From: Candidatus Bipolaricaulia bacterium
Lineage (GTDB): Bacteria; Bipolaricaulota; Bipolaricaulia; JBHIAT01
Direction: 5' to 3'
Length of the DNA: 32,000 nt
NCBI GenBank assembly: GCA_046758705.1
Contig: JBHIAT010000005.1
Coordinates: 18,009-50,008 of the forward strand
The notes below the pieces were generated by a model, which was given only the letters and a program-made list of their open reading frames with translations, did not search any database and had not been told where the DNA came from. The position numbers and the translations under genes were made by a program. How positions within the stretch are numbered: the stretch's first letter is position 1; every line of letters starts with the position of its first letter. Shown here piece by piece: positions 10,345 to 29,290 of the stretch.

Positions 10345-10362
10345 TAGAAGGAGGAGACAGTT

Positions 10363-12360: not shown

Positions 12361-12383
12361 ATTTTATCGTGAGTGAAGTATCC

Positions 12384-12414: not shown

Positions 12415-12484
12415 ATCCCCATCTAAGCCGAGTGAACTGAAGATGATTTGAAAAAGCTAAAGTTATTGAAGTGAAATCGTAGTT

Positions 12485-13276: not shown

Positions 13277-13439
13277 CTCTTTTCCTCCTTCAGCTAAAAA
13301 TGTTTGCCGAATGCGAATAACTTACTTTTTGCTTATGCATGCTACATCATTTGCGTTATACGTTCAATGACATGCCCTATCTTCAAGACACAAGTTGGGA
13401 GATCTAATTACTCTCCTGATTTTGTCCCCACCTCCCCTC

Positions 13440-13467
13440 TTGACACTCCTCTCCCCCATGCTAAACT
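13440..13467 (+). promoter_or_regulatory. possible promoter TTGACA-16 nt-TAAACT
   Basis: -35 at 13440-13445 and -10 at 13462-13467, in the intergenic region upstream of the gene at 13653. Confidence 0.3.
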
Positions 13468-13626
13468 ACCCTGACAACCGCCTGTCCATGTCCGACACCC
13501 CACGTCGGCGCAAGGTGTCCAAGCGACATAGTCCATCTTTCAAAATATTGAAACCAAGCCACAGAACACTATGACAAGGGGATGACGACATACACCCAAA
13601 CGCCGACATCCCTACTGACAGCCACC

Positions 13627-13643
13627 TATGACACGGTGTCATA
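13627..13643. promoter_or_regulatory. palindrome TATGACA-cgg-TGTCATA, 10 nt upstream of the HTH gene start
   Basis: Read directly. It is part of a run of TGACA/GACAC motifs across 13441-13643. Confidence 0.35.
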
Positions 13644-13652
13644 CCATCTATC

Positions 13653-14225
13653 ATGCCTGAAGAATCTTACACCCTGACCTATCAACAAGTTGCCGAGCTC
13701 CTCGGTAAATCTCGCCGAACGGTTCAACGCTATGTGGAGGAGGGGAAGCTCTCCAAGGACGAGGTAATGACCAAGACAGGCCAGCGGGTTTATTTTTCAG
13801 AAGCCGAAGTCAAAAAGCTCCAACAGGAGCTGCAGGAACCCCGCAGGGGTGACAGAGGGGGTGACACGTCATCCCAGCGCACACTGGCACTCCAGACGAT
13901 GGTAATGGGCCTTCAGAATCAGTTAGATAAGAAAGACGACCAGCTGGAGAAAAAAGAGGAAAAGATTGAGAAGCTGAATCGGGAGCTGGGAAGAATGGAA
14001 GGTCAGATGAAAGACCAGGGAAAGCTGGCTGAGGAACGAAGGCGGCTGGGGGAGAACCTAAAGAAAGAACAGGAAGAAAAGGTAGCTCTGGAGGGGGAAA
14101 TTGGCGGTCTCAGAAAAAGCCTGACTCGAGGACTGCTTACTGTAAACCTAATTTACATTATTGCTATCCTCGTCGCCGCCGCGATCCTCTTTTGGCCTCG
14201 GATTCAATCGCTTTTAACCCGCTAA
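13653..14225 (+). CDS. excisionase/MerR-like HTH + coiled coil + C-terminal TM helix protein
   Basis: 190 aa. The N-terminus LTYQQVAELLGKSRRTVQRYVEEGKL is a typical HTH. The centre is rich in E/K/L heptads. The C-terminus LLTVNLIYIIAILVAAAILFW is hydrophobic. Confidence 0.55.
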   Translation: MPEESYTLTYQQVAELLGKSRRTVQRYVEEGKLSKDEVMTKTGQRVYFSEAEVKKLQQELQEPRRGDRGGDTSSQRTLALQTMVMGLQNQLDKKDDQLEKKEEKIEKLNRELGRMEGQMKDQGKLAEERRRLGENLKKEQEEKVALEGEIGGLRKSLTRGLLTVNLIYIIAILVAAAILFWPRIQSLLTR

Positions 14226-14240
14226 TAGCCCTACAGACCT

Positions 14241-14450
14241 ATGATTAAGGTAATCCCTACCACTAAATTTCAGCCCACCCGAGCAGCCCTTAAAAGTAAG
14301 GAGCCCTTCTTGGTGTACCAGATCAAGGACGGCAAGCTCATCATTCAGGAGCTGCAGGAGTGCCTGGAAGACATCCGCAATGGGAAAGGGCAGATTGACG
14401 TGAGAGGGGGTGATGTTTCAGTGAAAAAACCCCAGGTTTTCTACAGATAG
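14241..14450 (+). CDS. hypothetical small protein (69 aa)
   Basis: ORF only. There is no SD and no recognisable motif. Confidence 0.25.
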   Translation: MIKVIPTTKFQPTRAALKSKEPFLVYQIKDGKLIIQELQECLEDIRNGKGQIDVRGGDVSVKKPQVFYR

Positions 14451-14779
14451 GCCTTCCAGTAGTAAGCGAGCAATTTTTGTCGTTTAGAGATTAAAAGAAG
14501 CTTCCCTTGGGACTTTTGGTGCCTCAAGATGAGAAGGTTGAGGAGAGCGGTCATCTGTAATGAAGGATGCACCAACTATTGCCATCTGTTGGCTAACGCA
14601 ACGAATGTTCCTGAATAGTGCAGAGGTGGTAATGGAACGAAGCCGGTTTCAGCGAAAGAAGGAATGGTGAGATGCTGAAATCTGCACCAGAATTGTGCTT
14701 CAGGTGCAAGGGATATCGTCGTCATGATACCTTAGCGACAAAAAATGTTCCATTACTACGGGAAGGCCAGACTGGGAAG

Positions 14780-15202
14780 TTACGACGGCGTTGAGTGAAC
14801 CTCCTCAAGCCAATGCCCCCGATGGGTGCGTTTGATTCCCGTACTATCCACGACCAGGATCACCGGTTCCTCGGGATCGAGCTGGGGTTCCGGGTCTAAC
14901 CTCAACTGGGGCAGCCTGAGGCTAAATGTGGTGTAGTCTGGAGCCGGAAGGTGAGTAAGCTTGCCAAGTGCACGTGCGAACCCTTCTAACTGTCGATAGG
15001 GAAGATGGAAAGCAGCTCGAATCATGCCCAGGGGAAGCATCAGCGTCTCCGGGTAAACGAAGGGATGCCCTCGCTTACCTTCGTTCATACGAGCGATCTC
15101 TTGATGCCAATCTTTGAGGACATCGACCTTAAGCAGGATCTCACCTCGTCTGACGAGCTGCTCATTGTACTGCACCCAGTTGCGTGATTGACGATGAGCC
15201 AC
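14780..15202 (-). pseudogene. IS5-family-like DDE transposase, N-terminal fragment
   Basis: 140 aa. The pattern NWVQYNEQLVRRGEILL...VVDSTGIKRTHRGHW matches NW.YN..L..RG ... DSTG.K of the IS5/IS903-type transposases as I recall them. The ORF stops just after the first catalytic Asp, and the remaining ~2/3 of the enzyme is absent. It has a GTG start with GGGAGGGG upstream. Confidence 0.65.
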
Positions 15203-15346
15203 AGTTATCCCCTCCCATCAGCTAATTTAGCCCTTTCGTGGTGATTTGTTCAAGGCCCAATTGGAGTAGGACTTGGATCACCCTCTCAAAGTTGCGTTTT
15301 AGGTGCTCTGAGTATATCCTGAGATAAAAACCAAAGGAGGATAACT

Positions 15347-16237
15347 ATGAACACCGAAAGTTATCATTTCAAGTTAGGCGAATTTGAATGCGTTTCTATC
15401 AGCGATGGCAGCTTCAATTATCCGATTGAAAGCTTTTTTGCCAACGCACCGAAGGAGCAACTTGAAGAGACCCTTCGCCAACACGACCTGCCATTAGAAC
15501 ATCTAACCACGCCGTACACCTGTCTGTTTGTCAGCACGGGCCAGCACCGGGTGATGATAGACACGGGTGCAGGAAATATAGGAGCAATCGCAGCCAAATT
15601 TTTCCCAAATGTGGACCATTCAACAACAATTACGGGCAATTTGCTCCAGAACATGGAAGCAGCGGGTATTAAGCTTGCGGACATTGATACAGTCATTATC
15701 ACGCACGCTCATCCAGATCATATTGGTGGCACACTTGATGATGGCAAGCTCGTTTTCGCCAACGCCCACTACTTTATCTCGAAAGACGAGTGGGATTTTT
15801 GGACTTCGGATATCGCTACAGCAAAAACTCCAGAACCCATGGTGAACATCGCGCGCAAAAATCTCGAACCCCTTCAAGATCGGCTGACCCTTATTGATAT
15901 TAATGATGAGTTTGAGACCGTGCCGGGCATCCAGGCTATTGCAACAGTCGGACACACGCCCGGTCATATCGCCTTGTCCATCGCCTCCGGTGGCGAGCAA
16001 TTGCTGCACATCTCCGATGCAGTGCTTTATCCGCTCCATCTGGAGCACCCGGAGTGGATCCCGGTCTTCGACATACTGCCTGAGGAAGCTGCCGCCAGCA
16101 AGCACCGAATCTTGGATCGGGCAGCACAGGGGAAGGCATTGGTGTTTGCCCATCACTTCCCTCCCTTCCCGAATCTGGGTCACGTTGTCAAGCAAGGGGA
16201 AGGATGGCAATGGCAACCGATTGAGACGAAGAGGTAA
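15347..16237 (+). CDS. MBL-fold metallo-hydrolase
   Basis: 296 aa. It has ITHAHPDHIGG (HxHxDH) and GHTPGH. AAAGGAGGA lies 7 nt upstream of the ATG. Confidence 0.85.
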   Translation: MNTESYHFKLGEFECVSISDGSFNYPIESFFANAPKEQLEETLRQHDLPLEHLTTPYTCLFVSTGQHRVMIDTGAGNIGAIAAKFFPNVDHSTTITGNLLQNMEAAGIKLADIDTVIITHAHPDHIGGTLDDGKLVFANAHYFISKDEWDFWTSDIATAKTPEPMVNIARKNLEPLQDRLTLIDINDEFETVPGIQAIATVGHTPGHIALSIASGGEQLLHISDAVLYPLHLEHPEWIPVFDILPEEAAASKHRILDRAAQGKALVFAHHFPPFPNLGHVVKQGEGWQWQPIETKR

Positions 16238-16412
16238 GGAATCGTCGAGGCCATTTGATAAGCTGCGCCTAACACAGGTGTTTCAGCCAGCTACCTATCT
16301 TGGCTTTAATTCAACACTGTTCAATTACAGGAATTGTTCAACAAGCCCGCAATTAGCAGGCTGTGTTGAAGTTGAATAAATACGAGTTACTCGGAGCGGA
16401 AGACTCATAGAG

Positions 16413-16440
16413 AAGCAGCAAATCGCTGCTTTTTCTGTCT
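16413..16440 (+). terminator. possible rho-independent terminator
   Basis: Stem AGCAGC (16414-16419) / GCTGCT (16425-16430), loop AAATC, followed by TTTTTCTGTCTTATTTT. Confidence 0.35.
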
Positions 16441-16526
16441 TATTTTGAGTTCTTAATGCCCGTCGTCAGACCAGTGTGGTGGGTCTCCCACCAGTTTGAT
16501 TACACCATAGGATGATCCTCCCAGCA

Positions 16527-16555
16527 TTGACTGAATCCCGCTTCTGATCTATAAT
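16527..16555 (+). promoter_or_regulatory. sigma70-like promoter TTGACT-17 nt-TATAAT
   Basis: -35 at 16527-16532 and -10 at 16550-16555, 65 nt upstream of the ATG at 16621. Confidence 0.5.
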
Positions 16556-16620
16556 AGCATTGTTATTACCGGGAAGGGTTATTAGCGGCAATTAACTAAA
16601 TTGAATGGGGTGTAGTTAAT

Positions 16621-17232
16621 ATGAGCAAGGAGGACACTATTCTCAGTGAGATAACAAAATTCTACTTGGATTCCGGCGATTTTAATGGTCTTCCTATCCG
16701 TGAGATTATCCGAAACTTTGAATTAGAAGGAAAAGAACTCGAAAACGTTCTCGCTTCTTTAATTGAAGAAGATAAAATCTCTCTCAACCTTGGAGACCGT
16801 CACCCAAATCCTCACATCAAGGCGTTTGATGAAGAACCTGCGGAAACACAGATAAAAAAGCTGCAGAGTTTAAACCTAGAGGACGCCTGCGCTTATCCCA
16901 CAAGATCACACCTCCAAGAAGTGGTTGACGTATCTGAGTATCAAGATAGACTCTTTACACTAAGGCTAGCCTTAGGCGAACCGCAGCTATTGGGGAGATC
17001 AACCCCTATCGAGAACCTCGGGATTCACCGGATAGCGGGGCCGCTCCAGGCTCCCGGTCGCGAGCGAGGCCTGGGCAACCAGTCGATCGCTTCTACAACT
17101 CTTCCTCTGGCCCCGGCAGATCCGGGCAGGTTTTTCGGTACGACTCATCGCCCAAGAACTGCTGCCACTCCGCGCGGGTCAGGTTGCGATTGGCTATGCT
17201 GCAGGCACGGGCTTGCCAGGACTCAAGGCTGA
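16621..17232 (+). CDS. hypothetical protein, probably 3'-truncated or chimeric at the island junction near 16991
   Basis: The first ~123 aa are AT-rich and protein-like. From ~16992 the frame runs through the 55-bp direct repeat and then antisense to the WD40 gene tail, giving a Pro/Arg/Gly-rich read-through. Confidence 0.35.
   Translation: MSKEDTILSEITKFYLDSGDFNGLPIREIIRNFELEGKELENVLASLIEEDKISLNLGDRHPNPHIKAFDEEPAETQIKKLQSLNLEDACAYPTRSHLQEVVDVSEYQDRLFTLRLALGEPQLLGRSTPIENLGIHRIAGPLQAPGRERGLGNQSIASTTLPLAPADPGRFFGTTHRPRTAATPRGSGCDWLCCRHGLARTQG
16992..17046. repeat. 55-bp direct repeat, left copy
   Basis: GGGGAGATCAACCCCTATCGAGAACCTCGGGATTCACCGGATAGCGGGGCCGCTC. It is 53/55 identical to 29393-29447; the mismatches are at 17013 and 17014. 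On the minus strand it encodes ..ERPRYPVNPEVLDRG-stop. Confidence 0.9.
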
Positions 17233-19921
17233 CATCCCACAAGAGGATAGTACCATCGTCACTTCCCGACGCCAGTGTTTTACTATTTGGGCTGAAAGCC
17301 ACACTGTTTACGCTAGACTTGTGGCCAGTGAGGGGTGACCCGAGCGGCTGGCGTGCCACGACATCCAATAGGATTACTGCACCATCGGCATTCGCCATCG
17401 CCAACATTTGGCCGTCCGGCCTAAACGCTACACTTTTCACTCCCCGTTGATCTGTGAGCGGTGGGCCAAGCATCTGCTGCGTTGCCACATCCCACAGAAT
17501 GATAGCGTTTTCCTGACTGGTCTTGCCTAAACTGCTTGAAGCCAGCAGTTGGCTGTCCGGGCTGAACGCCAAGCTGGTCACCCGTGCGGTATGCCCAGTG
17601 AGAGGCTGGCCAAGCGGTTGACGAGAGGTGACATCCCATAGCCTGATGGTGTCATCCCAACTACCCGATGCCAACGTTTTTCCATCGGGGCTGAAGGTCA
17701 CGCTTGACACCTCGTCAGTGTGTCCGGTGAGGGGTGGACCAAGCGGTCGACGAGCGGCGACATCCCACAAGATGATAGTGCCGTCCTCATTACCTGACGC
17801 CAGCATTTTGGCATCCGGGCTAAAGGTCACGCTCACCACCCGGCTTTCGTGTCCGGTAAGGGGTTGGCCAATGGGTCGACCAGTCGCGACATCCCACAGG
17901 ATGATGGTGCCGTCCGAACTACCCGACGCCAGTATTTTTCCGTCCGAGCTGAAAGCCTCGTTCAGTATGTTTTCTTTGATGGAAGACTGGCTTACTGGTC
18001 GATGTTCCTCAACATGCCATAAGATGATGCTGTCGTCCCTTTCGCCTGAAGGTTTACGACCAAACGATACCAACGACTGGCCATCTGGAGTGAAAATCAC
18101 GTTTGATATCGGGTCGGCGTGTGTCGTAAGGGACCGAGCAAGTGGCTCAGGGTTGGCAAGATTCCACATGATAATGGTGCCGTCCCGATCGCTCGACGCC
18201 AACGTTTGGCCATCCGGACTGAAGGCCACGCTCAACACCTCGTTAGTGTGTCCGGTGAGAGGTTGGCCGAGCGGCTTAAGGGTAGTGGCATCCCAAAGGA
18301 TGAGGGTGTTGTCCCGGCTGGCCGAGGCCAACATTTGGCCGTTGGGGCTGAAGGCCACGCTGTTCACAAGATGCTTGTGTCCGGTAAGGGGCTGGCCAAT
18401 GGGTTGACCAGTGGTGACATCCCATAGCCTGATGGTGTCGTCTGAACTACCCGACACTAGCATTTGGCCGTCGGGGCTGAAGGCCACACTGGTCAGCCAA
18501 CTTGCATGACCGGTAAGGGGCTGGCCAATGGGTTGACCAGTGGTGACATCCCATAGCCTGATGGTGTCGTCCCAACTACCTGACGCTAACATTTGGCCAT
18601 CGGGGCTGAAGGCCACGCTCACCACCCAGCTCTCGTGTCCAGTAAGGGGCTCGCTGATGGGCTGACCAGTCGCGACATCCCACAGGATAATGGTGTCGTC
18701 CGAACTACCCGATGCTAGCATTTGGCCATCCGGGCTGAAGGTCACGCTGTGCACCCAACTATTGTGGTCAGTTAGAGGGGGGCCAAGAGGCTGGCGATCC
18801 GCAACATCCCATAGCCGAATTTCGCCTTGCTTGCATAATCCACCTTCGTGGTCAGCGCAACTGCCCGAGGCCAACATTTTTCCGTCTGGGCTAAAGGCAA
18901 CGCTGTATACCCAGTTAGTGTGTCTGGTGAGGGGCGGTCCGAGCGGCCGGTGGGTAGCGACATCCCACAGGATAATACTGTTATCCCAACTGCTTGAGGC
19001 CAGCGTCTTTCCATCTGGACTGAAACTCACACTCAACACCCCGGCAGTGTGGCTGTGCAGGAAAGCGCTTAGGCGAGGGTTGTGTTCCAGCCCGGTGAGT
19101 AGACTACTTCGAGCTTCCAAAGTCTTTTTAACCTGGTGAGCTTCCACACTTAATAACAAGGCCAGGTTCAACTGGGCATCCAAGTGAGTGAGGGCTTGCG
19201 CAGCCAATTGGCGGGAGAGGGCGATCTGGCGCCGCTCTTCGGCAATCTGGCGCTGATAGAAAGCCCACCCTGTCAAAAAGGCTAACGCTACCGCTACACT
19301 AATGGCAACTATTGTGAGTGTCCTTTGGCGCTTAGCGGTGGCCTTACGACTGGCGGTGATGTACTGGGTTTGAAGTGACGTGGGCTTAGGTTCTTTCTCT
19401 GCGGCTTGCGCTAGCCATTCCTCCGCATCTCGTAGATCACTCCCGCGCAGCACAAAGCTGTTGTCACGCTCGTTGCTATCCCACTCAATGGCACGCTCCA
19501 GCAAGCGCGTATGCGCACGCACCCAGTCCAGATCGGTATCGATGGCTTCGATCAAAGATTGGAGGGCGCCATCGAAATCGTCACTCTCACGAAAGAAAAT
19601 CCAGTTGAGTGCAGCCAGAGCTTGAGGCACGGCTTCGGCGTCAACATCACGACGCACGATGGGCGTGAGCCGTTTATGGTGCTCGACAGCGTGAGCAAGC
19701 TCTTGAGCACAGACCTCTGAGTCCACGGAATCCGGACTGATGACGAATACAAACGTGTCAGCCGCCTCAATGGCAGAATAAACCTCCTCCAGCCACTCCG
19801 CAGAGGGGGGAATATCCTCCCAGTCAACCCAGGAGTCTCGGTCACGTTCGCTGAGCGCTTCATGTAGATCACGTACGAAATCCTGATCTTGGCGCGAGTA
19901 GGAGATAAAAACGTCAGCCAT
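17093..19921 (-). CDS. TIR domain / helical linker / single TM helix / 14x WD40 protein (no NTPase)
   Basis: 942-aa intact ORF. N-terminal TIR pattern: DVFISYSRQD...FVFVISPDSVDSEVCAQEL. Hydrophobic helix LTIVAISVAVALAFLTGWAFY at nt 19256-19318. 14 WD40 units follow. GAGG lies 5 nt upstream of the ATG. Confidence 0.9.
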   Translation of the reverse strand: MADVFISYSRQDQDFVRDLHEALSERDRDSWVDWEDIPPSAEWLEEVYSAIEAADTFVFVISPDSVDSEVCAQELAHAVEHHKRLTPIVRRDVDAEAVPQALAALNWIFFRESDDFDGALQSLIEAIDTDLDWVRAHTRLLERAIEWDSNERDNSFVLRGSDLRDAEEWLAQAAEKEPKPTSLQTQYITASRKATAKRQRTLTIVAISVAVALAFLTGWAFYQRQIAEERRQIALSRQLAAQALTHLDAQLNLALLLSVEAHQVKKTLEARSSLLTGLEHNPRLSAFLHSHTAGVLSVSFSPDGKTLASSSWDNSIILWDVATHRPLGPPLTRHTNWVYSVAFSPDGKMLASGSCADHEGGLCKQGEIRLWDVADRQPLGPPLTDHNSWVHSVTFSPDGQMLASGSSDDTIILWDVATGQPISEPLTGHESWVVSVAFSPDGQMLASGSWDDTIRLWDVTTGQPIGQPLTGHASWLTSVAFSPDGQMLVSGSSDDTIRLWDVTTGQPIGQPLTGHKHLVNSVAFSPNGQMLASASRDNTLILWDATTLKPLGQPLTGHTNEVLSVAFSPDGQTLASSDRDGTIIMWNLANPEPLARSLTTHADPISNVIFTPDGQSLVSFGRKPSGERDDSIILWHVEEHRPVSQSSIKENILNEAFSSDGKILASGSSDGTIILWDVATGRPIGQPLTGHESRVVSVTFSPDAKMLASGNEDGTIILWDVAARRPLGPPLTGHTDEVSSVTFSPDGKTLASGSWDDTIRLWDVTSRQPLGQPLTGHTARVTSLAFSPDSQLLASSSLGKTSQENAIILWDVATQQMLGPPLTDQRGVKSVAFRPDGQMLAMANADGAVILLDVVARQPLGSPLTGHKSSVNSVAFSPNSKTLASGSDDGTILLWDVSLESWQARACSIANRNLTRAEWQQFLGDESYRKTCPDLPGPEEEL
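17231..19051 (-). repeat. in-frame WD40 repeat array, 14 units
   Basis: Units were counted in the translation, and the boundaries checked against nucleotides (His codon of unit 1 at 19049-19051). Confidence 0.85.
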
Positions 19922-19951: not shown

Positions 19952-20884
19952 TCAATTGGATCGCTGTTCGGTTAAAGTTGCGATGTCGAGCGCCAGACGG
20001 TCGAAAAAAGCGGATTCAGGTTGAGCAAGTATCGTCCGAGCGTTCAGGTCACGCAAAGGTACCGAGCCGATTCCAGGGTCAAGCACCTCCCAAGGCACAA
20101 CATCCGCCAGAAGTCCAGGCAGCAACAGCGGAAAGATGCCCCGTGGACCGTCGAGTTGAGCATACGACCCCAGTGCCCAGTGTACCTCCTGTATGACCGC
20201 TTCGCTGTTCAGCGAAGCATCACTCAACAGGACCACAAAGGCGTCGGCGATGCGCAGATTGTCCTGAACTGCTATACGCCAGTTTTCGCCTGCCCGCAAT
20301 GCTGTCAGATCGCGCCACACCGTCAGACCGCGTTCCTCCAGAGCTTTCTGAACTTTAGCTGCAAGCACCTCATCCTCACGCGCATAACTGATCAACACCC
20401 GACACCCATAGCGCAGTTTGCGTTCCATCCAGATCAGCTGCTCCACACTGCGCGCGTCAGGTTCCGGGAAACCACGCAGCCACCAGCCAATCTTGCTTGC
20501 AGATTGGATCGGCTTCTTGTTAGTGAATCGCAACTTCAGCAGTTCTGAGGTAAAGTCGCGCACGGTGGTGGACTTGAACGAGAAATGGTACGTGCCTTCG
20601 GCATTGGTAGCAATAACAGCGTATTTGCCATAATTCTTGTAAGGGATCTGATCCATCTGTTCTTTTGGCACAGCCATACAGCCGGCCAATTTATAAGCCA
20701 GCGTATAGATGCGCTGACCATTGCTGTTCACCACGCTGGTGACGATCCACAGCGTACCCCCACTGGCCAGTTTGTAGATCACCTTGCTCTTGCTGCGGTA
20801 GAAGTTAGCGCGGAACGCGGGATGCCCGCCGGGGCCACGTCGCAGAATATCCCAATTGACATAGGCCAGTGCATGTCGGCTCAT
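19952..20884 (-). CDS. unknown N-terminal domain (~165 aa) + C-terminal TIR domain protein
   Basis: 310 aa. C-terminal TIR pattern: RVLISYAREDEVLAAKVQKALEERGLTVWRD...AFVVLLSDASLNSEAVIQEV. I recognise no motif in the N-terminal half. Confidence 0.75.
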   Translation of the reverse strand: MSRHALAYVNWDILRRGPGGHPAFRANFYRSKSKVIYKLASGGTLWIVTSVVNSNGQRIYTLAYKLAGCMAVPKEQMDQIPYKNYGKYAVIATNAEGTYHFSFKSTTVRDFTSELLKLRFTNKKPIQSASKIGWWLRGFPEPDARSVEQLIWMERKLRYGCRVLISYAREDEVLAAKVQKALEERGLTVWRDLTALRAGENWRIAVQDNLRIADAFVVLLSDASLNSEAVIQEVHWALGSYAQLDGPRGIFPLLLPGLLADVVPWEVLDPGIGSVPLRDLNARTILAQPESAFFDRLALDIATLTEQRSN

Positions 20885-20899: not shown

Positions 20900-22663
20900 T
20901 TAACCAGCCTTGTTTCTCATTTCACCTTCTCTTCTGTCTTCAGTTTGCTGGGCGTACAATTCGGCCAGCGCATTTTCCATCCGCTGCACCCAACCGGTAT
21001 GTTCACCCTTGAGAATCTTTTCTGTATGCTTGACCAGTTTGTCGACGTTTTTTGGATCTGCCTGTTCCTTAGGCAACAACGCCGTCCACCAGGCCTGCAC
21101 ATTGGCCAAGTCCGTCGCCACTTGGTTGTATTTCATCAGCGTGTTCTCGATCTGCTGGTATTCCAGGTATGTGATGAAAGCAGCCGCCAACGCCGTCGTC
21201 AGCGCGATCCACAGTTCTACCCCCAACGCAGCCAGCAAGGTGCCCACACCACCAGAGATGTAAATCAACCATTGTAAGCGCTTCAACTGCCGCTCCAGTT
21301 TAGTCGTTTTGAGCCGATAGAAATTGAGCTGGTCACCCAGTCGAATAGTGATGTAGCGATCGGGTGTGAGGAAGCTGAATCCGTCGTCGTCCGCCGCCGC
21401 GCCGTCCATCTTAGGTGGAATAGGATCCACGTACGGGCGCAAGGCCGATAGATTCACGTCGGTTTGCATTAACTGACGGCTGACGGACTCTACCTCGCGG
21501 GTCAGTTTGGCCTCTCGGGAAGTCTTCCCCATCTGCTGATCGTTGTAGATCCCGGCCTTGGCGCGATAGCGAAATATCTCTCGTTTGATCGCTTCGGCGC
21601 CGGCACGCAGCAACACCCACTTGTTGCCTGCTTTGAAGCGGTTGGCCGCCGCCACCAAAATAGAAACTGTGATCGGCACGATCACGATGACATAGTGAAG
21701 CACCTGACCCTGCCAAGAACGGTCATTCTGTATCCCCAACTCCCTTTGGCTCAATACCAGGAGTGTGCCGAGCACCCCCAGCGTCAGAATCCCCAGTTGC
21801 AGTCTGTTAAAGCTGATCTGCTGGCGTTTAGCGTTGTCGTCGTAGAGCGCAAAGCGCTCCCAGACCAGCCTGAGTGTTGTGTGCCTGCTCAACTGGCGAA
21901 TGATCATTCGTTCCAGCCCTGCGATCGGATCATCTAGCGAAAAGAGATGAAAATCACCATCGGCGATAATCTCGGCCATTACCGGGTCGTCGATAAAGGA
22001 AGGCTTTTCCTGACATAACGTGGCGATTTCGTCTGCCAGCCGTCTGCTGCCTTCGATAACAATGATGGGCCAGCCTCGCCGCACGCTACGCAACACCTCT
22101 TCCTTAGCAATGAGACCACCATTGACGAGCACTGTCACGGCAGGGACTCCTTTAGCCAACCCCTCTGCTAACTCATATAGTGTATCTGTTTCTCCGCCCC
22201 AGTCATTGCTTTCTACTAATACAAAATGGGAGTGGTTGGGATCGAGCGGCGCGCTGTCCTCAATGCTATCTTCGGCCGGTCCGCCAGGGTAAGTGACCTT
22301 GCCCGCAGGCGCCACGCCCAACAGAGTTGACCTTCGTCCCCGGTCGACAACGCCCTGGCCCATCATGGCCATCACCCCCACCTGCGTGCCGCCGTCAATG
22401 ATCAACGCGCCCGTGTCGGCGGCGGCGCGAGCGATGCCGCGACTGAACAACTGAACCAAGCGGGATTTCAGTTCCTCATCGAGACCTGCCGCACCACCGA
22501 CGATCATAAGCAGCGCTTTTGGTTGTTCAATGCCCAGTACGTGTAGGATGTTGGCGGCGCTTGTTTCAGCCGGTGGAGCCACCAGTTGCGCCCGATTGCC
22601 GTTAGGAAAAAGGATTTCCTTTTTGCTCTCGTCTTGATTTGCTTGTTGTGTGCCCACTAGCAA
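20900..22663 (-). CDS. SLOG (TRPM/LSDAT-like) domain + two SLATT-like 2TM modules; predicted nucleotide-gated membrane effector
   Basis: 587-aa ORF. SLOG-like Gly-rich motifs: MIVGGAAG, IIDGGTQVGVMAMMG, VLVNGG. Four hydrophobic helices: LGILTLGVLGTLLVL, VLHYVIVIVPITVSILVAAA, WLIYISGGVGTLLAALGV, LWIALTTALAAAFITYL. The likely true start is the GTG at 22657, which has GGAGG 6 nt upstream, rather than the TTG at 22663. Confidence 0.75.
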   Translation of the reverse strand: MLVGTQQANQDESKKEILFPNGNRAQLVAPPAETSAANILHVLGIEQPKALLMIVGGAAGLDEELKSRLVQLFSRGIARAAADTGALIIDGGTQVGVMAMMGQGVVDRGRRSTLLGVAPAGKVTYPGGPAEDSIEDSAPLDPNHSHFVLVESNDWGGETDTLYELAEGLAKGVPAVTVLVNGGLIAKEEVLRSVRRGWPIIVIEGSRRLADEIATLCQEKPSFIDDPVMAEIIADGDFHLFSLDDPIAGLERMIIRQLSRHTTLRLVWERFALYDDNAKRQQISFNRLQLGILTLGVLGTLLVLSQRELGIQNDRSWQGQVLHYVIVIVPITVSILVAAANRFKAGNKWVLLRAGAEAIKREIFRYRAKAGIYNDQQMGKTSREAKLTREVESVSRQLMQTDVNLSALRPYVDPIPPKMDGAAADDDGFSFLTPDRYITIRLGDQLNFYRLKTTKLERQLKRLQWLIYISGGVGTLLAALGVELWIALTTALAAAFITYLEYQQIENTLMKYNQVATDLANVQAWWTALLPKEQADPKNVDKLVKHTEKILKGEHTGWVQRMENALAELYAQQTEDRREGEMRNKAG

Positions 22664-22687: not shown

Positions 22688-24961
22688 TCAAGGGTTGCGG
22701 TGTACATGATATGTTGGAAAGGTGCCATACCCTTTAGCCAACGGAGTTTGTCCGACGTAGTCGCACGTGAAGTCACTGATGCGCTCAGCTGCTGCCAAGG
22801 CCGCGAACGGTTGGCTAGCGTAGACATGACCCGGCGGCGTGATCGGCTCGATCCGGGCAGCCCAATTGACGTGCGAACCGGTGTAGCTGTGCTGTTCAAT
22901 GACTGGATCTTTGCAAGAGTACACAGGGCCAGCATGCAGCGCAATGCGAAGGTTCAGATCCTCGGGCAATCCTTTCTCCATCCAATCGGTGCTGCGCAGC
23001 CAGTCACTCAGTTCGAGGGCAAAATTGCCCGCCTGCTTGACAGAGGAGAAGACAAAATATAGAGCATCGCCCCAGGTGTTCTTCATTACCGGCTTATGGG
23101 GAGATGCAGCTACCAGATCGGAGACTGCTCCCATGAAGTGCGCCACGAAGCGTGGGATCTCTTCCTCAGTGAGCTTACTGTACCCCACTACGTCGGCGAA
23201 GAGCATCGCCATGATCTCTTGGGGAAAGCCAGGTGGAGTGGTTATCAGGTAGGGAACGGTTGGAGTCGCAGGTTTGCTGGTTACCGGGGCGGATTGGATG
23301 ACGATAGTCTTCTCTAGTAGAGTAGCAATATCCACCACCTCAGGTTCTCGATCCTGCGAGCGCCAGTGTTCCACCAGTGAAGTGGTGCCCCCTGGTCCAT
23401 CGCCAGGGCGGCCGTCCCACACGACCAGGGGGATCACCTCGGTATCCAGCATCTGTGCCCGTAGCGCTGCCAGGCCATCCTGCATGAGGTTGGAGTATTC
23501 GTAGGCAACCGCACTTCCTGAAGCGCGATGCTCGCTGGCAACCATAACGCGGGCGACCTGCTTCAACACGCGTCGGAAACGCCTCCCCCAATTGGCTCCA
23601 GGAATGATGTCCACACTGGCCGTCTGAAACTCATCCTTCGGAAATGGCAGTACAACATGGATCTCACCTTTTTGCCTTAGCATCGCTTCCAGGAAGAGGA
23701 TGTCGGAGCCGCAGGCTGCTGAGGCGTAGCCAATGCGTGCATCCAATTTCTTCAACCTAGCAGCGATCTCCTGACGGACCAGCTTTTCCAGTGATTGGGG
23801 AAAGCGCGGTCGAGGCCGGCCCGGTTGGTCAATCATATGGCCGGCAAAGACGACGATCCGGGGAATCCCAAAACAGCGGTCGAAACGATGTTTGTCACCA
23901 CCCAGGTACTCCATCAAGAGTCGGGCATTGTGCCGGGTAGAACCCAGGTCGGCGTAATTTCCTTGCCCCTGTTCTGCTGCTCGGATATATCGGGCTTCAG
24001 CCTCGATCCACTCACCTAAGATGATTGCCGCCTCCCCCAGCGATGCCTCAGCCCAGTAGTCATCCTGCTCCTGCAATTTTTCCAGACAGAGAACACGGAC
24101 TTTGCGGGCCAGCTCCTTGGCGTGCTCTTGTTGTCCCATCAGCAGGGCCGTGGTGGCCGCGTTGATCCCGGTGTAAATGGCATCGTCAACTTTGTTCCCT
24201 CTTACCGCCAGGCGGTACGCCTTGGAATAAATATCGTGTGCCTGACGCAATTGGGCTTCTCGTTCGGCAGGGTCCGTTGCCTGTTCCCGGAGATCTTTGT
24301 GAGTGCGAGCAAGGAGGCCGAGCGTCTCCCCATCGGTATGCCCCTCGTGGTGGAGTTGGGAGAGAATCTCATTGGCTCGTTCGATCGCTCCACTGCGGGC
24401 GAGCGCCAATCCCTTAAGTTGCCTCAGGCGCACGTTTTTGGGCCAGTGCTTCAAGCCCGTAGCGATAATGTCATAAGCCAACAAAGGTTCGCCCGCCTTC
24501 AGGATCCGGTTGCCCAGCACTTCGTAGAGCTCAGAGGAACCGGCCCAATGCCCCGATGATATCGGTGCCCAAATCGATAGGAGATCTGTCAGGTCCAATT
24601 TGTCAGGGCCCTTCAGTCGTTCCAGCGCTTCTGTAACGGCTTCATAAGAAGAGCCAGAAGCGGATGAAGATCTCCGAGACGGGCTCTCAATCCGATACCC
24701 CAGAGCAATGATCGTCTTCAACACTTCCATCGCTGTTATGCGATCGTATTCCTTCTCGGACTCGGAGAGCTGCGCGTAGGGCAACAGGTCGGGATGCTTC
24801 TTGTTCGCGTCATCCTGCTGAGGTCCATAGGTCCAGCCTGCGGCAATGCGCTGCTGAGCCCAGAGGTCATGGTTATTTTCGGCCAGCAACTCGGTGAGTT
24901 TGCGAAGTCCCTTGGGCAACTTCATGCCCGAGGTGTCAATCGGTTTAGGTTCGTAAGTCAT
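22688..24961 (-). CDS. RyR-like domain / TPR-like (DUF4071-like) region / SLOG/LOG-like Rossmannoid module / class III adenylate-guanylate-type nucleotide cyclase
   Basis: 757 aa. The RyR-like segment is LAENNHDLWAQQRIAAGWTYG...HPDLLPYAQLSESEKEYDR. A helical repeat region contains YTGINAATTALLMG. The Rossmannoid module reads IVVFAGHMID...GYASAACGSDILFLEAML..GEIHVVLPF. The cyclase motifs FADVVGYS, WGDALYFVF, LRIALHAGPV and GSHVNWAARIE are all intact. The ATG overlaps the upstream stop (ATGA). Confidence 0.8.
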   Translation of the reverse strand: MTYEPKPIDTSGMKLPKGLRKLTELLAENNHDLWAQQRIAAGWTYGPQQDDANKKHPDLLPYAQLSESEKEYDRITAMEVLKTIIALGYRIESPSRRSSSASGSSYEAVTEALERLKGPDKLDLTDLLSIWAPISSGHWAGSSELYEVLGNRILKAGEPLLAYDIIATGLKHWPKNVRLRQLKGLALARSGAIERANEILSQLHHEGHTDGETLGLLARTHKDLREQATDPAEREAQLRQAHDIYSKAYRLAVRGNKVDDAIYTGINAATTALLMGQQEHAKELARKVRVLCLEKLQEQDDYWAEASLGEAAIILGEWIEAEARYIRAAEQGQGNYADLGSTRHNARLLMEYLGGDKHRFDRCFGIPRIVVFAGHMIDQPGRPRPRFPQSLEKLVRQEIAARLKKLDARIGYASAACGSDILFLEAMLRQKGEIHVVLPFPKDEFQTASVDIIPGANWGRRFRRVLKQVARVMVASEHRASGSAVAYEYSNLMQDGLAALRAQMLDTEVIPLVVWDGRPGDGPGGTTSLVEHWRSQDREPEVVDIATLLEKTIVIQSAPVTSKPATPTVPYLITTPPGFPQEIMAMLFADVVGYSKLTEEEIPRFVAHFMGAVSDLVAASPHKPVMKNTWGDALYFVFSSVKQAGNFALELSDWLRSTDWMEKGLPEDLNLRIALHAGPVYSCKDPVIEQHSYTGSHVNWAARIEPITPPGHVYASQPFAALAAAERISDFTCDYVGQTPLAKGYGTFPTYHVHRNP

Positions 24962-27900
24962 GGTATTCCTCCTTCCTCTGGCTCTGGCAGATTCGGGCAG
25001 GTCTTGCGATACGGCTCATCGCCCAGATACTGCTGCCACTCGTCCAGTGTGAGATTGTGTGTCAGGCGGGAGCAGGCTTCGGCAATCAGGTCTTCCGGCT
25101 GCCACAGCCACACGCGGGCGGTGCCGTCCCAACTTGCTGAGGCCAGCCGGCGTCCGTCGGGGCTGAAGGCTACGGCGCTCACCGGGCCATCGTGGAACAT
25201 GCGGGCGACCTCGCGCCCAGTTTCTGCCTCCCACACGCGGGCGGTGCCGTCCACACTCCCTGTGGCTAGCTGGCGTCCGTCGGGGCTGAAGGTTACGGCA
25301 GACACCCTGCCATCGTGCATCATGCGGGCGAGCTCGCGGCCAGTCGTTGCCTCCCACACGCGGGCAGTGCCGTCCCAACTTGCTGAGGCCAGCCGGCGTC
25401 CGTCGGGGCTGAAGGCTACGGCAGACACCAGGTCATCGTGCATCATACGGGCGATCTGGCGGCCGGACTCCGCCTCCCACACGCGGGCGGTGCCGTCCCA
25501 GCTCGCCGAGGCTAGCCAGCGTCCGTCGGGGCTGAAGGTCACAGCCACCACCTGGCGTTCGCTTTCATGCATCATCTGGGCGACTTGGCGACCGGACTCC
25601 GCCTCCCACACGTGGGCGGTGCCGTCTCTGCTCGCTGAGGCGATCCACTGCCCGTCGGGGCTAAAGACCACGGCATTTACCCGGTCTTTGTGGGTCATGC
25701 GAGCGATCTCGCGGCTGGATTCTGTCTCCCACACACGGGCAGTGCCGTCATCGCTCGCCGAGGCCAACCAGCGTCCGTCGGGACTGAAGGCCACAGCATT
25801 CACCGGGTCTTCGTGGGGCATGCGGGCGATCTGGCGGCCGACCGTTGCCTCCCACACGTGGGCAGTATTATCATCGCCTCCCGAGGCCAGCCAGCGTCCG
25901 TCGGGGCTGAAGGCCACGGCATTCACCGGGTCTTCGTGGGGCATGCGGGCGATCTGGCGGCCGGCCGTTGCCTCCCACACACGGGCAGTGTTGTCATCGC
26001 CTCCCGAGGCCAGCCAGCGTCCGTCGGGGCTGAAGGCTATGACAGACACCCTACCTTCATGCATCGTGCGGACGACGTGGCGGCCGGCCGTTGCCTCCCA
26101 CACGCGGGCGGTGCGATCCTCGCTGGCTGAGGCGATCCACTGCCCGTCGGGGCTGAAGGTCACGGCGCTCACCAAGCCTTCATGCGTCATGCGGGCGATC
26201 TGGCGGCCGGTTTCCGTCTCCCACACACGGGCAGTACGATCCCCGCTGGCCGAGGCGATCCACTGCCCGTCGGGGCTGAAGGCTACGGCACTCACCGGGC
26301 CTTCGTGGGTCATGCGGGCGACCTGGCGGCCGGTTTCCGTCTCCCACACGCGGGTGGTGCCATCCTCGCTGGCCGAGGCGATCCACTGCCCGCCGGGGCT
26401 GAAGGCTACCTCCAACACTGGGCCATCGTGGGGCATGCGGGCGATCTGGCGGCCGGTTTCCGCCTCCCACACGCGGGCGGTGCCATCCTCGCTGGCCGAG
26501 GCGATCCACTGCCCGCTGGGGCTGAAGGTCACGGCATTGACATCACCATTGTGGGTCATGCGGGCAAGTTCACGCCCAGTTTCCGCCTCCCACACGCGGG
26601 CAGTGCCGTCCCTGCTTCCCGAGGCTAGCCAGCGTCCGTCGGGGCTGAAGACCACAGTCCTCACCGGGCCATCGTGGGGCATGCGGGCGATCTGGCGGCC
26701 GGTTTCCGCCTCCCACACCTGGGCAGTGTTGTCGTTGCTTCCCGAGGCCAGCCAGCGTCCGTCGGGGCTGAAGGTGACAGTTACCACCGGGCCATCGTGA
26801 GTCATGCGGGCGATCTCGTGGCCGGACTCCGCCTCCCACACGCGGACGGTGCCATCCCAGCTGGCTGAGGTTACCCAGTGACTGTCAGAGTTGAAGGCCA
26901 CGGCAGACACCCCGCCTTGGTGAGTCATGCGGGCGATCTGGCGGCCGGACTCCGCCTCCCACACGCGGGCGGTGCCGTCCACACTCCCTGTGGCTAGCTG
27001 GCTTCCGTCGGGGCTGAAGGCTACGGCAAACACCCAGCTTTCGTGCGCCATCTGGGCCACGGGACGCGAGAGCAGCGCTAGGCTGTGACGTAGGGCTTGG
27101 TCACCCTCCAACGTGGGAACGCGTCGCAGGGACTCCACGACCAAGAGCACGCTGCGCGGCAGCAAATCTGCTTGCTGGACCCGCACAAACTCGGCCTGAG
27201 CCGCCAACTGGCGTGCCAACTGTTCCTCGGCCACCTGACGCTGCTCTTCAGCGATCCGGCGCTGTTCTTCGGCGCGTCGCCATTGCAGGCCAGCTACCCC
27301 GCCCAAAATCAGAGCTGCCAGCAGACCTAGGGTAAGCCCTAAGATCACGCGCCGCCGTAGGCGTTCTCGCGCTGCCCGCTCCTGCTTCCGCAGGGCAAGG
27401 CTCTCCTGGGTATATCCTTGCTCATCCGGGTTTAGGTCGTCGGGCCGCTCGGTCAGCCAACGCTCAGCTTCGGCCAGCGAGGCACCGCGTAACAGGGCGC
27501 CCTCGTCGCGCTCAGTGCGCTCCCACTCGGTCAGGGCTGCTCGCAGCCGTTGCCTCCAGAGAAGAAACTCCCGGTCTTCGTCTAGCCAACTCTGCAACTG
27601 CTTCCATCCTCGGACGAGGGCTTCATGAACCACCTCGACCGTTTCCTTGCCAAAGACCTCGCGAGCGACCCCGACTTTCTCCTCCTCTGTGACACCATCC
27701 CGCCCTGTCACTAGCAGCCGGGCGTCAGCCAGGGTCTTGATCACCGACCGGGCCTCTTCGCCGAGCTCGACCAACGTGGCCCGCCTGCGGGTGTCTTCAC
27801 TCCCTTCTTCAGGCTGTGCTACACGGACCAGCCGGGTAAAGACGCGGCGAGTAGCCTTCCGCTGCTCTGGCGTGAATTTCGCAAATTCCGCCTCTGCCCG

Positions 27901-29193
27901 CTGGGCGATGGCCCCTGCTACCTCCCCGATGTCCTCGTAAGCAGCGTGGGTCAACATCCCGCCCTGTCGCTGCGCCCACAGTTCCGTCAGCGCAAACTCC
28001 AACAGAGGCAGGTTGCCTGGGTTATCTCCTACATCGTCAAGGATGCGGTCCACTAGCCCGGGCTCGAAGGTCAGCCCTACCTTTTGAGCAGGATCAACGA
28101 TGGCTCGTTCCAGTTCGTCTCGTTTCATAGAGCCCAGGTTGACCACGCCCCCCTCCAGGCGGTCGCTCAGATCTCGTGTTAAGGCGAGAGCGTTACCGTA
28201 GAAGTCAGCCCGCAGGGTGAGCAGAACGGACAGCGGTGCCCGCTCTAAAGCGTTCAGCAGAGCTGTCACAAAGGACTTGCGATCTGTTTTCGGCGTCAGG
28301 GTGAAGAGTTCCTCGAATTGATCCGCCACCAGCAACAGTCGGTCGGTGCCCTCGGATTTCTCCAGGAGGCGCTCGACGGCGTCCTCCAGGAGTGTCTCTC
28401 CGTTTGCTAGCCGCTTTCCCAACTTCCGAGCCTCTGTCAGGCGGTCCGTCTCGTTCAGGCTCGGCTCCAGGAGCGAGATGAGGGCCGCGGCCAGGCGGTG
28501 GAAGGGGCGATCTCCGGGAGTGAAGAGAACCGCATCCCAGGTCGCTGCTGGCGGGCGTTGACGACGCAGCAGAGGTAATAACCCCGCTTGCACGACGGAG
28601 GATTTGCCGCTGCCAGAGGGCCCGACGACCGCCACCAGATTTCGATTCAGCGTTGCCTTCAACAACCGTTTGGAAAATTCCTCCTGCCCGAAGAAGAAGG
28701 CAGCGTGCTCCTCACCAAAGGCCCGTAGACCCCGATAGGGACACAGGGCCACGCGCACTTCTTCCGGCCGGACTGCCTCCTTCCCCCGGACGGCTCGCAC
28801 CAGTGCATCCAACGCCTCGGAGTCGGTGAGGTCTTGGTGTAGATCCACCCAGGTGTTAAGGAACAGGAAACCGGAGGTGAGGTCGGCACCGGGGAGTAGG
28901 ACGGGGATGACAGGAAAAACGCGCCCGGCCTTCTCCTCCTGCACCTGGCGGTCTAGGGCGAACCCTATCTCCCGCTTTTGCCAGAGGCCTAGGTCATGGG
29001 GGCCGAGGAAGACAGCCACGGCGCGTGCGCTGCGCAGCGCTTCTTCCAGGGCCTGGGGCCAGGGCAGACCCGCCACCAGGTTCTCACGGTCCAAAAAGGT
29101 GGCAATCCCACGGGCTTCCAGAAGCTGCCGAACGGTCTGGATCGATTTGCGATCAGGACTGTGGTAACTCAGAAAGAGGTCATAAGTACTCAT
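24958..29193 (-). CDS. TIR / STAND P-loop NTPase (nSTAND-like) / single TM helix / 16x WD40 protein
   Basis: 1411-aa intact ORF. TIR pattern: YDLFLSYHSPD...AVAVFLGPHDLGLWQKREI. The linker CPYRGLRAFGEEHAAFFFGQE is followed by Walker A GPSGSGKSS (nt 28603-28623). Hydrophobic helix VILGLTLGLLAALILGGVAGL at nt 27286-27348. 16 WD40 units follow. Confidence 0.9.
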   Translation of the reverse strand: MSTYDLFLSYHSPDRKSIQTVRQLLEARGIATFLDRENLVAGLPWPQALEEALRSARAVAVFLGPHDLGLWQKREIGFALDRQVQEEKAGRVFPVIPVLLPGADLTSGFLFLNTWVDLHQDLTDSEALDALVRAVRGKEAVRPEEVRVALCPYRGLRAFGEEHAAFFFGQEEFSKRLLKATLNRNLVAVVGPSGSGKSSVVQAGLLPLLRRQRPPAATWDAVLFTPGDRPFHRLAAALISLLEPSLNETDRLTEARKLGKRLANGETLLEDAVERLLEKSEGTDRLLLVADQFEELFTLTPKTDRKSFVTALLNALERAPLSVLLTLRADFYGNALALTRDLSDRLEGGVVNLGSMKRDELERAIVDPAQKVGLTFEPGLVDRILDDVGDNPGNLPLLEFALTELWAQRQGGMLTHAAYEDIGEVAGAIAQRAEAEFAKFTPEQRKATRRVFTRLVRVAQPEEGSEDTRRRATLVELGEEARSVIKTLADARLLVTGRDGVTEEEKVGVAREVFGKETVEVVHEALVRGWKQLQSWLDEDREFLLWRQRLRAALTEWERTERDEGALLRGASLAEAERWLTERPDDLNPDEQGYTQESLALRKQERAARERLRRRVILGLTLGLLAALILGGVAGLQWRRAEEQRRIAEEQRQVAEEQLARQLAAQAEFVRVQQADLLPRSVLLVVESLRRVPTLEGDQALRHSLALLSRPVAQMAHESWVFAVAFSPDGSQLATGSVDGTARVWEAESGRQIARMTHQGGVSAVAFNSDSHWVTSASWDGTVRVWEAESGHEIARMTHDGPVVTVTFSPDGRWLASGSNDNTAQVWEAETGRQIARMPHDGPVRTVVFSPDGRWLASGSRDGTARVWEAETGRELARMTHNGDVNAVTFSPSGQWIASASEDGTARVWEAETGRQIARMPHDGPVLEVAFSPGGQWIASASEDGTTRVWETETGRQVARMTHEGPVSAVAFSPDGQWIASASGDRTARVWETETGRQIARMTHEGLVSAVTFSPDGQWIASASEDRTARVWEATAGRHVVRTMHEGRVSVIAFSPDGRWLASGGDDNTARVWEATAGRQIARMPHEDPVNAVAFSPDGRWLASGGDDNTAHVWEATVGRQIARMPHEDPVNAVAFSPDGRWLASASDDGTARVWETESSREIARMTHKDRVNAVVFSPDGQWIASASRDGTAHVWEAESGRQVAQMMHESERQVVAVTFSPDGRWLASASWDGTARVWEAESGRQIARMMHDDLVSAVAFSPDGRRLASASWDGTARVWEATTGRELARMMHDGRVSAVTFSPDGRQLATGSVDGTARVWEAETGREVARMFHDGPVSAVAFSPDGRRLASASWDGTARVWLWQPEDLIAEACSRLTHNLTLDEWQQYLGDEPYRKTCPNLPEPEEGGIP
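25102..27045 (-). repeat. in-frame tandem array of 16 WD40 units with a 123-bp (41-aa) period and high inter-unit nucleotide identity
   Basis: Unit consensus is HxxxVxAVAFSPDG(R/Q)W(L/I)ASxSxDGTARVWEAETGRQIARM. Unit 13 has a 2-aa insertion and unit 16 is 31 aa. The boundaries were verified (His codon at 27043-27045). Confidence 0.9.
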
Positions 29194-29260: not shown

Positions 29261-29290
29261 ATAGTATCTCATAGGGTATCAGATCGTCAA
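29261..29290 (-). promoter_or_regulatory. possible operon promoter TTGACG-18 nt-TACTAT (minus strand)
   Basis: -35 is the reverse complement of 29285-29290 and -10 the reverse complement of 29261-29266, about 70 nt upstream of the ATG at 29193. Confidence 0.3.

Follow-up and report, generated by a model that had tools for sequence, protein, structure and literature searches.

Proteins with TIR domains make signals of the cyclic ADP-ribose (cADPR) type, and SLATT effectors answer canonical cADPR (bioRxiv 10.64898/2025.12.03.692087; PMC13232231). The SLOG domain of ThsA, the SIR2-SLOG effector of Type I Thoeris, binds 3'cADPR, and RyR domains also bind cADPR-type signals (bioRxiv 10.64898/2025.12.03.692087; PMC13232231), while the TPR-S domain is the presumed cADPR sensor of ThsI, the effector of Type VIII Thoeris; SLATT and TPR effectors can occupy one TIR operon (bioRxiv 10.64898/2025.12.03.692087). 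Here we describe a gene that brings these domain types together, located at positions 22688 to 24961 of a stretch of 32,000 nucleotides (the window) from Candidatus Bipolaricaulia bacterium (contig JBHIAT010000005.1, positions 18,009 to 50,008). Its 757-residue product, hereafter the target, joins RyR, TPR-S and SLOG-like modules to a class III nucleotide cyclase. With candidate signal-sensing domains, an adjacent TIR gene and three TIR genes in its operon, the target is somewhat more probably than otherwise a multi-sensor cyclase, acting as receiver and output of a TIR-based, Thoeris-like signalling system that uses derivatives of nicotinamide adenine dinucleotide (NAD).

ThsA resembles the target in that it couples a SLOG-fold domain to an enzymatic output and has TIR genes as neighbours, but its output domain differs, and it is found outside the top 50 Foldseek matches of the target SLOG-like module, whose sequence resembles that of no SLOG family. 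ThsI, a CMP hydrolase with a TPR scaffold of a kind that Aravind's group predicted to sense NAD-derived signals, also has TIR genes beside it. By contrast, the target carries a class III cyclase instead of a nucleotide hydrolase, as well as additional RyR and SLOG-like modules, and its likeness to ThsI is in domain content and gene context. SLATT effectors such as ThsH (Type VII) and TPR effectors are found together in some TIR operons (bioRxiv 10.64898/2025.12.03.692087), and the window operon likewise combines SLATT and TPR proteins. Since no Thoeris effector model of PADLOC or NCBIfam matches the target, it is assigned to no named Thoeris type. Membership in Pycsar was also rejected, no PADLOC Pycsar model matching the target. 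A literature search found no experimental report of TIR or Thoeris proteins acting with an adenylate cyclase, nor a TIR-linked sensor with a class III cyclase as its output, two papers of the Aravind group that possibly list the architecture lying outside its coverage. The SLOG and TPR sensor domains were reportedly defined by Burroughs et al. in 2015 (NAR) and by Burroughs and Aravind in 2020 (J Bacteriol).

The original prediction, made by reading the sequence, proposed a four-module signalling enzyme. Pfam matches for the RyR, TPR-S and cyclase modules, and AlphaFold and Foldseek results for the Rossmann-like module, support this layout:

22688–24961, minus strand: target open reading frame, RyR – TPR-S – SLOG-like – class III cyclase, 757 amino acids
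24680–24961, minus strand: RyR / R12 domain, residues 1–94, with a candidate ADP-ribose (ADPR)-type ligand pocket (H31, W34, H56, D73)
23906–24658, minus strand: all-helical TPR-S region, also MAP3K_TRAF_bd/DUF4071-like, residues 102–352
23303–23884, minus strand: SLOG-like Rossmannoid module, residues 360–553, from AlphaFold2 and Foldseek
22691–23239, minus strand: class III nucleotide cyclase catalytic domain, residues 575–757, Pfam PF00211

The ATG start codon is preceded by a GGAGGA Shine-Dalgarno sequence and shares 4 bp (ATGA) with the stop codon of the upstream gene. An identical protein is recorded at NCBI as 'MAG: RyR domain-containing protein [Candidatus Bipolaricaulia bacterium]' (P0001). 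The full-length AlphaFold model has a predicted local distance difference test score (pLDDT) of 87.5 and a predicted template-modelling score (pTM) of 0.80. The only segments of low confidence are residues 95–103 and 555–573, which places the module borders at about 1–94, 102–352, 360–553 and 575–757. The peptides quoted in the original prediction were all found in the target, YTGINAATTALLMG at residues 263–276, GYASAACGSDILFLE at 411–425 and KNTWGD at 627–632. Its RyR pattern matched residues 34–74, except for one wrong spacing (W...R instead of W..R).

The target is the second gene of a five-gene operon on the minus strand, with successive gaps of -4, 24, 15 and 30 nucleotides, and the only promoter-like site in the operon is found upstream of the first gene:

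29261–29290, minus strand: sigma-70-like promoter match upstream of gene 1, by consensus match only
24958–29193, minus strand: gene 1, TIR_2 – nSTAND1 – (transmembrane) – WD40, 1411 amino acids (TIR_2, E 8.5e-20; nSTAND1, E 2.7e-122)
20900–22663, minus strand: LSDAT-type SLOG and SLATT membrane effector, 587 amino acids, 24 nucleotides past the target (Pfam, NCBIfam)
19952–20884, minus strand: 155-residue N-terminal domain and C-terminal TIR_2, 310 amino acids (Pfam TIR_2, 2.9e-19)
17093–19921, minus strand: last gene, TIR – (transmembrane) – WD40, 942 amino acids (PADLOC ThsB-type TIR at residues 1–100; WD40)

The Glu of the 'S..C..EL' motif in the 942-residue TIR-WD40 protein aligns with the TIR motif of Cat1 and TLR, and the corresponding Glu of the other two TIR domains was assigned by sequence inspection only. 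The TIR partners of the operon match the ThsB-type PADLOC models weakly.

We then asked how widely this arrangement recurs among relatives of the target. The architecture recurs far more than chance would allow: searches at E ≤ 1e-5 returned 1,933 homologs, and the top 120 are all full-length, at least 50% identical to the target and of the same architecture. A genome survey with one genome per GTDB species yielded 517 loci, of which the best 80 were taken, with TIR counts made over 77. A TIR gene was present within 6 kb at 52/77 of these loci, and adjacent at 40/77. Neighbours were clustered and representatives scanned with Pfam; the most recurrent proved to be four unrelated TIR families and one nSTAND1-TPR family. 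These five families are:

TIR_2+DUF4062, about 506 amino acids, 22 loci
nSTAND1-TPR, about 934 amino acids, 19 loci
TIR_2/ThsB_TIR, about 638 amino acids, 16 loci
triple TIR_2, about 687 amino acids, 13 loci
TIR-TPR, about 528 amino acids, 5 loci

The frequency of TIR genes falls with gene rank, from 28% at rank 1 to 8.7% at rank 2, 3–5% at ranks 3–4 and 1/135 at rank 5 or beyond, and that of nSTAND1 genes peaks at rank 2. A second, independent survey, in which RyR-less members served as seeds for scanning metagenomes, comprised 38 loci with RyR (RyR+) and 42 without (RyR-), and a TIR gene was present within 6 kb at 46 of these 80. Two RyR-less relatives without TIR context had suggested that the linkage hinges on RyR. 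This was rejected, as a TIR gene was present within 6 kb at 25/38 RyR+ and 21/42 RyR- loci (Fisher p 0.18); the TIR gene was adjacent at 22/38 and 14/42, respectively (Fisher p 0.04). The linkage of RyR-less loci indicates that association with TIR genes is a property of the TPR-S-SLOG-cyclase core, and not of the RyR subfamily alone. Taken together, these results show a strong and specific link between the family and TIR genes. The original prediction had suggested that a TIR product could control the synthesis of a second messenger; the two sets of neighbourhoods lend this idea strong, independent support, and the interpretation as a whole is partly supported.

Some of these loci display arrangements of their own. 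A recurrent four-gene cluster of Acidobacteriota (L057-L059, L063, L065, L070, L110, L117, L119, L121, L144 and others) comprises a target homolog, a TIR_2-DUF4062 protein of about 500 amino acids, an nSTAND1-TPR protein of about 930 amino acids and a protein of about 390 amino acids with only a weak match to Phenol_MetA_deg (outer-membrane barrel-like). TIR and nSTAND1 are thus separate proteins in this cluster and a single protein in the window, a link of the Rosetta-stone type. In L011/L012, where P0008 is encoded, the gene after the homolog specifies a second RyR-domain protein, of 893 residues, and the next one a giant DUF4062(TIR-like)-NACHT-WD40 protein. A conserved SLOG-SLATT partner was rejected: the 80 related genome loci contain no LSDAT/SLATT homolog, indicating that its adjacency to the target is particular to the window.

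The output module was defined by a Pfam Guanylate_cyc match (PF00211; residues 583–754, E 2.8e-8, 34 bits for a cut-off of 21.9) and by Foldseek matches to CyaB (3r5g), Cya2 (2w01), Ma1120 and Rv1900c (1ybt), with TMt of 0.70–0.81. Alignment to 3mr7 and 3et6 assigned D590 and D632 to the metal-binding pair, R672 and K743 to phosphate binding, all four being conserved in the family, and N699/R703 to the transition-state pair, in which R703 is likewise conserved. The PF00211 match and these residues agree with the complete catalytic domain that had been recognized by eye, and the cyclase is probably active, as judged from its sequence. The fold, the metal Asp pair, the Asn/Arg pair and the phosphate-binding Arg/Lys are common to the target and to the bacterial class III cyclases CyaB, Cya2, Rv1264 and Rv1900c and the Pycsar cyclase PycC. 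By contrast, the regulatory modules are unique to the target, KNTWGD is shifted by one residue, N628 replaces the Lys/Glu selector and the second selector is variable. N628, conserved in at least 90% of the family, occupies the column of Lys in adenylate cyclases and Glu in guanylate cyclases, K627 lying one position earlier, and the second selector column (Asp/Cys) holds S692 in the target and varies within the family. The alignment to solved cyclases thus bears out the original remark that the specificity residues are non-canonical, and the Asn in place of the usual Lys or Glu selector means that the cyclase product is not predictable.

Relatives are annotated as 'TRAFs-binding domain-containing protein' or 'class 3 adenylate cyclase/TPR' and are distributed over Acidobacteriota, filamentous cyanobacteria, Deltaproteobacteria and other phyla. 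A search with the SLOG-like module alone retrieved 3,607 clusters (50% identity). Of the 149 top representatives, 85 have the order TPR-MID-cyclase and 29 the order RyR-TPR-MID-cyclase, MID being the SLOG-like module. The N-terminal module is replaced in variants by GAF, cNMP-binding (cNMP, cyclic nucleoside monophosphate), nSTAND1 or cyclase+STAND NTPase modules; one variant has CHAT for the TPR region and another REC for the cyclase. These swaps define a conserved core of TPR-S, SLOG-like module and cyclase, in which RyR is one of several interchangeable inputs. The exchange of N-terminal small-molecule sensors such as GAF and cNMP-binding domains fits an input-transducer-output design. Examples of fusions of the TPR-S-SLOG(-cyclase) core to other modules are P0134, P0161, P0187, P0185, P0140 and P0124.

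We next considered the modules that may sense the signal. For the SLOG-like module, Pfam scans of the target and 28 diverse members gave no match at E ≤ 10, and no NCBIfam, PADLOC or PDB-sequence match was found. Profile comparisons with hhalign were not significant, whether against the LSDAT SLOG of the window, gp89 of phage DyoEdafos or a 120-sequence alignment of PF10686 (cpYpsA SLOG; probability 1%). Modelled alone, however, the module is confidently predicted to be a beta-alpha Rossmannoid (pLDDT 88.9, pTM 0.86), and 15 of its 17 Foldseek matches in the PDB at E ≤ 1e-3 are SLOG proteins, the other two being BHMT. The best were DprA of H. pylori and S. pneumoniae (1.8e-6) and YpsA (2.3e-6), YpsA 2nx2 having the best template-modelling score (0.57/0.66; TMt 0.66), and further matches included a MoCo carrier protein, TM1055, ShosA and LOGs. 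In BFVD, the module matched phage 'DprA-like' and 'YspA cpYpsA-related SLOG' proteins (best E 1e-9, TMt 0.78).

Conserved residues of the module are G374-H375, D378, R386-F387-P388, C417-G418-x-D420, E425, W458, R461 and G525-T526. In the model, G374-H375..D378 follow strand 1, and the invariant or nearly invariant C417-G418-x-D420 is situated between strand 2 and helix 2. The most conserved residues plausibly form a pocket. The YpsA clade has a GxD/E nucleotide-site signature, G53/E55 in YpsA (PMC6459960), which the CGxD motif resembles and to which it may correspond. On the predicted fold, we conclude that the module is a putative divergent SLOG-fold domain, with no match among the models of Pfam, NCBIfam and PADLOC. 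By the yardstick of the original prediction, profile searches for SLOG/LOG domains, the SLOG assignment would fail, since none returned a significant match; what speaks for it is the AlphaFold/Foldseek fold and the conserved GxD motif. LOG-type hydrolase chemistry is unlikely, as family members do not conserve the Glu of PGGxGTxxE, the LOG motif (E531 is variable), and the module is more likely a ligand binder than such a hydrolase. It had been proposed as the sensor of the enzyme; it is one candidate, but neither the sole one nor the one with the best precedent, given what is known of RyR and TPR-S.

The helical region had been likened to DUF4071/TRAF-binding TPR, which Pfam confirmed with matches to TPR-S (PF20308; residues 170–270, E 1.1e-17, 64.9 bits for a cut-off of 27.6) and to MAP3K_TRAF_bd (DUF4071; residues 173–330, E 2.2e-5, a score exactly at the gathering cut-off). 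It forms 13 helices in the full-length model, with pLDDT of about 90–98, and is kept in every core architecture scanned except one CHAT variant. The match to MAP3K_TRAF_bd, at threshold, recalls the regulatory region of animal ASK1/MAP3K5, in which a TPR scaffold also lies beside a Rossmann-like domain and is combined with a catalytic output. The similarity is weak, however, the domain order of ASK1 being different and its output a kinase, not a cyclase.

The RyR assignment, also made by eye, was borne out by Pfam PF02026 (residues 3–92, E 2e-35, 121 bits) and by a fold match to the dimeric RyR-like protein of B. thetaiotaomicron (3nrt/6uag; 53% identity, TMt 0.92, root-mean-square deviation 1.1 Å), on which a literature search found nothing useful. 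RyDEP, a phage PF02026 protein, is a homodimeric glycosidase that cleaves 2'/3'-cADPR, with H75 and D117 as catalytic dyad, W78 stacking on the adenine and H100 contacting the phosphates. Of eight further phage proteins with RyR domains that were assayed, six bind 2'/3'-cADPR, and the two studied in more detail do so with nM affinity, according to the same 2026 preprint (PMC13232231). We aligned the target directly with the RyDEP reference, gene 78 (gp78) of phage DyoEdafos (MN234187.1), and found that H75/W78/H100/D117 correspond to H31/W34/H56/D73. Among five aligned family members, the H75, W78 and D117 columns are invariant and the H100 column holds H or N. The target thus has the Pfam family and the H/W/H/D ligand residues in common with the phage RyDEP/sponge-type proteins and 3NRT, which are homodimers. 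Relatives of its RyR module occur in 201 phage records. The phage RyDEP and sponge proteins are anti-defence factors, whereas the target RyR belongs to a host protein, in which it is joined to a signalling enzyme, and is therefore presumably a sensor or built-in regulator. Through the phage proteins, RyR is the candidate sensor with the strongest experimental precedent. In RyR-less members, TPR-S and/or SLOG would have to suffice, since that half of the family is TIR-linked too. DyoEdafos (L093), the carrier of RyDEP, also encodes a cpYpsA-type SLOG protein (PF10686, annotated 'DprA-like') at 15387–15803, indicating that phages carry both of these domain types, which are fused in the target.

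These observations are consistent with the following scheme. The STAND/WD40 proteins would detect the invader, and their TIR domains would turn NAD+ into an ADPR-derived signal, a cADPR isomer or a relative of it. This ligand would bind the non-catalytic part of the target, in the RyR pocket (H31/W34/H56/D73), in TPR-S and/or in the SLOG pocket (GH..D, RFP, CGxD). Because RyR domains and class III cyclases both act as homodimers, we propose that binding would re-set the homodimer and switch on the C-terminal cyclase, whose cyclic nucleotide product would act as a second messenger. The SLOG-SLATT pore protein of the window would respond to this TIR signal as well, as a second membrane-bound effector working in parallel. 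A more elaborate version, which we put forward tentatively and consider less likely than not, is a two-tier cascade: the TIR-made signal would be read by the host RyR/TPR-S/SLOG assembly, and the Asn-selector cyclase would make a possibly non-canonical cNMP that amplifies or spreads the alarm, with RyR perhaps serving as a built-in, resetting glycosidase.

Several observations count against reading the target as a TIR-signalling receiver that produces a second messenger. The SLOG assignment comes from a predicted structure only, and the enrichment of TIR genes was gauged only by its decay with distance inside loci. The target has neither of the canonical selector pairs for purines (Lys/Asp for ATP, Glu/Cys for GTP), and most relatives have Ser at the position of Asn699; these non-canonical positions make both activity and product uncertain. 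Neither the window nor the recurrent neighbour families of relatives include a cNMP-binding protein, leaving a dedicated downstream cNMP receptor unsupported. This last result would suit a terminal abortive-infection effector, a TIR-triggered cyclase that drains the pool of nucleoside triphosphates (NTPs) or floods the cell with cNMP and requires no dedicated receptor. Cell death or arrest is the outcome with known Thoeris effectors (bioRxiv 10.64898/2025.12.03.692087), and the target holds the effector position adjoining TIR genes. Against this stand the variants with N-terminal cNMP-binding or GAF domains, suggesting that cNMPs are read as signals, and the SLATT pore effector already present in the window. 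Class III cyclases are not known to act as depletion effectors in bacterial defence, which also speaks against such a role. A terminal effector is thus unlikely, and a second messenger is the more likely role of the product than killing by NTP depletion.

The target could also be a housekeeping sensory adenylate or guanylate cyclase, responding to an endogenous metabolite (NAD+, ADPR or the nucleotide pool) in ordinary cAMP/cGMP physiology, with no role in TIR signalling or defence. Roughly one third to one half of the relatives (25/77 and 34/80) are without a TIR gene in the surrounding 6 kb, and some are found in ordinary contexts, such as those of P0065, P0090 and P0099 among chemotaxis, chaperone, transporter or response-regulator genes. 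Variants also bear the classical signalling modules GAF, cNMP-binding and REC. However, four unrelated TIR families head the list of neighbours, with a frequency that peaks at 28% next to the gene and is gone by rank 5–6, and in the window the target is translationally coupled to the TIR-STAND gene within a defence/mobile island. We therefore regard a housekeeping role as quite improbable. Finally, that RyR and/or SLOG destroy or process the TIR signal, as a RyDEP-like glycosidase or a LOG-like N-glycosidase setting a threshold or terminating the response to guard against autoimmunity, accords with the RyDEP dyad kept as H31/D73 and with the YpsA-like SLOGs of phages, nearest to the module among viral structures, being predicted degraders of cADPR-type signals (PMC9503650), but appears very improbable given that 6/8 phage RyR homologs bind without cleaving despite high conservation with RyDEP (PMC13232231), that the PGGxGTxxE Glu is not conserved and that a catalytically intact cyclase is kept throughout the family.

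To our knowledge, TIR signalling, in Thoeris as in plant TNL receptors and animal SARM1, has so far been known to act directly on terminal effectors. If the target is a receiver of TIR signals, a TIR-coupled cyclase would convert one messenger into another and so add a layer that has yet to be reported for bacterial immunity. The RyR/R12 domain, a binder or cleaver of cADPR isomers in phages, is here placed in a host sensor protein. If the two-tier cascade is real, this domain would be the first RyR of cellular origin with a demonstrated response to ligands of the cADPR type, a matter of relevance to the old debate over a link between cADPR and the ryanodine receptor. The family, large and uncharacterised, offers a tractable bacterial system to ask whether R12 domains are genuine cADPR receptors.

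Other features of the operon concern the partners of the target. The SLOG-SLATT gene matches LSDAT_prok (4e-52) and SLATT_1 (5e-29) in Pfam and SLATT in NCBIfam, with SLATT_1/SLATT_3 membrane domains. Its product (20900–22663) resembles the pore effectors of Type VII Thoeris and would carry a SLOG sensor of its own, and a TIR gene is located directly downstream. No Pfam match was found for the 155-residue N-terminal domain of the 310-residue TIR_2 protein. Both TIR/WD40 proteins (17093–19921 and 24958–29193) have a transmembrane-like hydrophobic stretch that separates the N-terminal part (TIR or TIR-nSTAND1) from the WD40 repeats, for example TLTIVAISVAVALAFLTGWAF; VILGLTLGLLAALILGGVAGL, which bears on where the propellers sit. 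A 668-residue open reading frame antisense to the WD40 repeats (24794–26800, plus strand), with a repetitive translation ('...SHTRAVPS.LAEA..RPSGLKAT...'), is almost certainly not a gene but a by-product of the GC-rich repeats.

The operon is surrounded by an apparent defence/mobile island in which GC content ranges from 0.42 to 0.69. A segment at about 7000–17000 has values of 0.42–0.50, as opposed to 0.55–0.69 elsewhere in the window, and is likely a mobile insertion adjoining the defence operon. It also encodes an HTH protein and a metallo-beta-lactamase-fold protein. The surrounding features are:

3468–6812, minus strand: Trypsin_2 – nSTAND1 – WD40, second STAND conflict protein, 1114 amino acids
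9769–10344: phage-type integrase, low-GC segment
12485–13276: trypsin-like peptidase, low-GC segment
14780–15202: DDE transposase fragment, low-GC segment
29548–32000, minus strand: DNA methyltransferase (N6_N4_Mtase/UPF0020, running off the window), then a 345-residue protein

The 345-residue protein has no Pfam match, and together with the methyltransferase it may form a restriction-modification pair flanking the operon.

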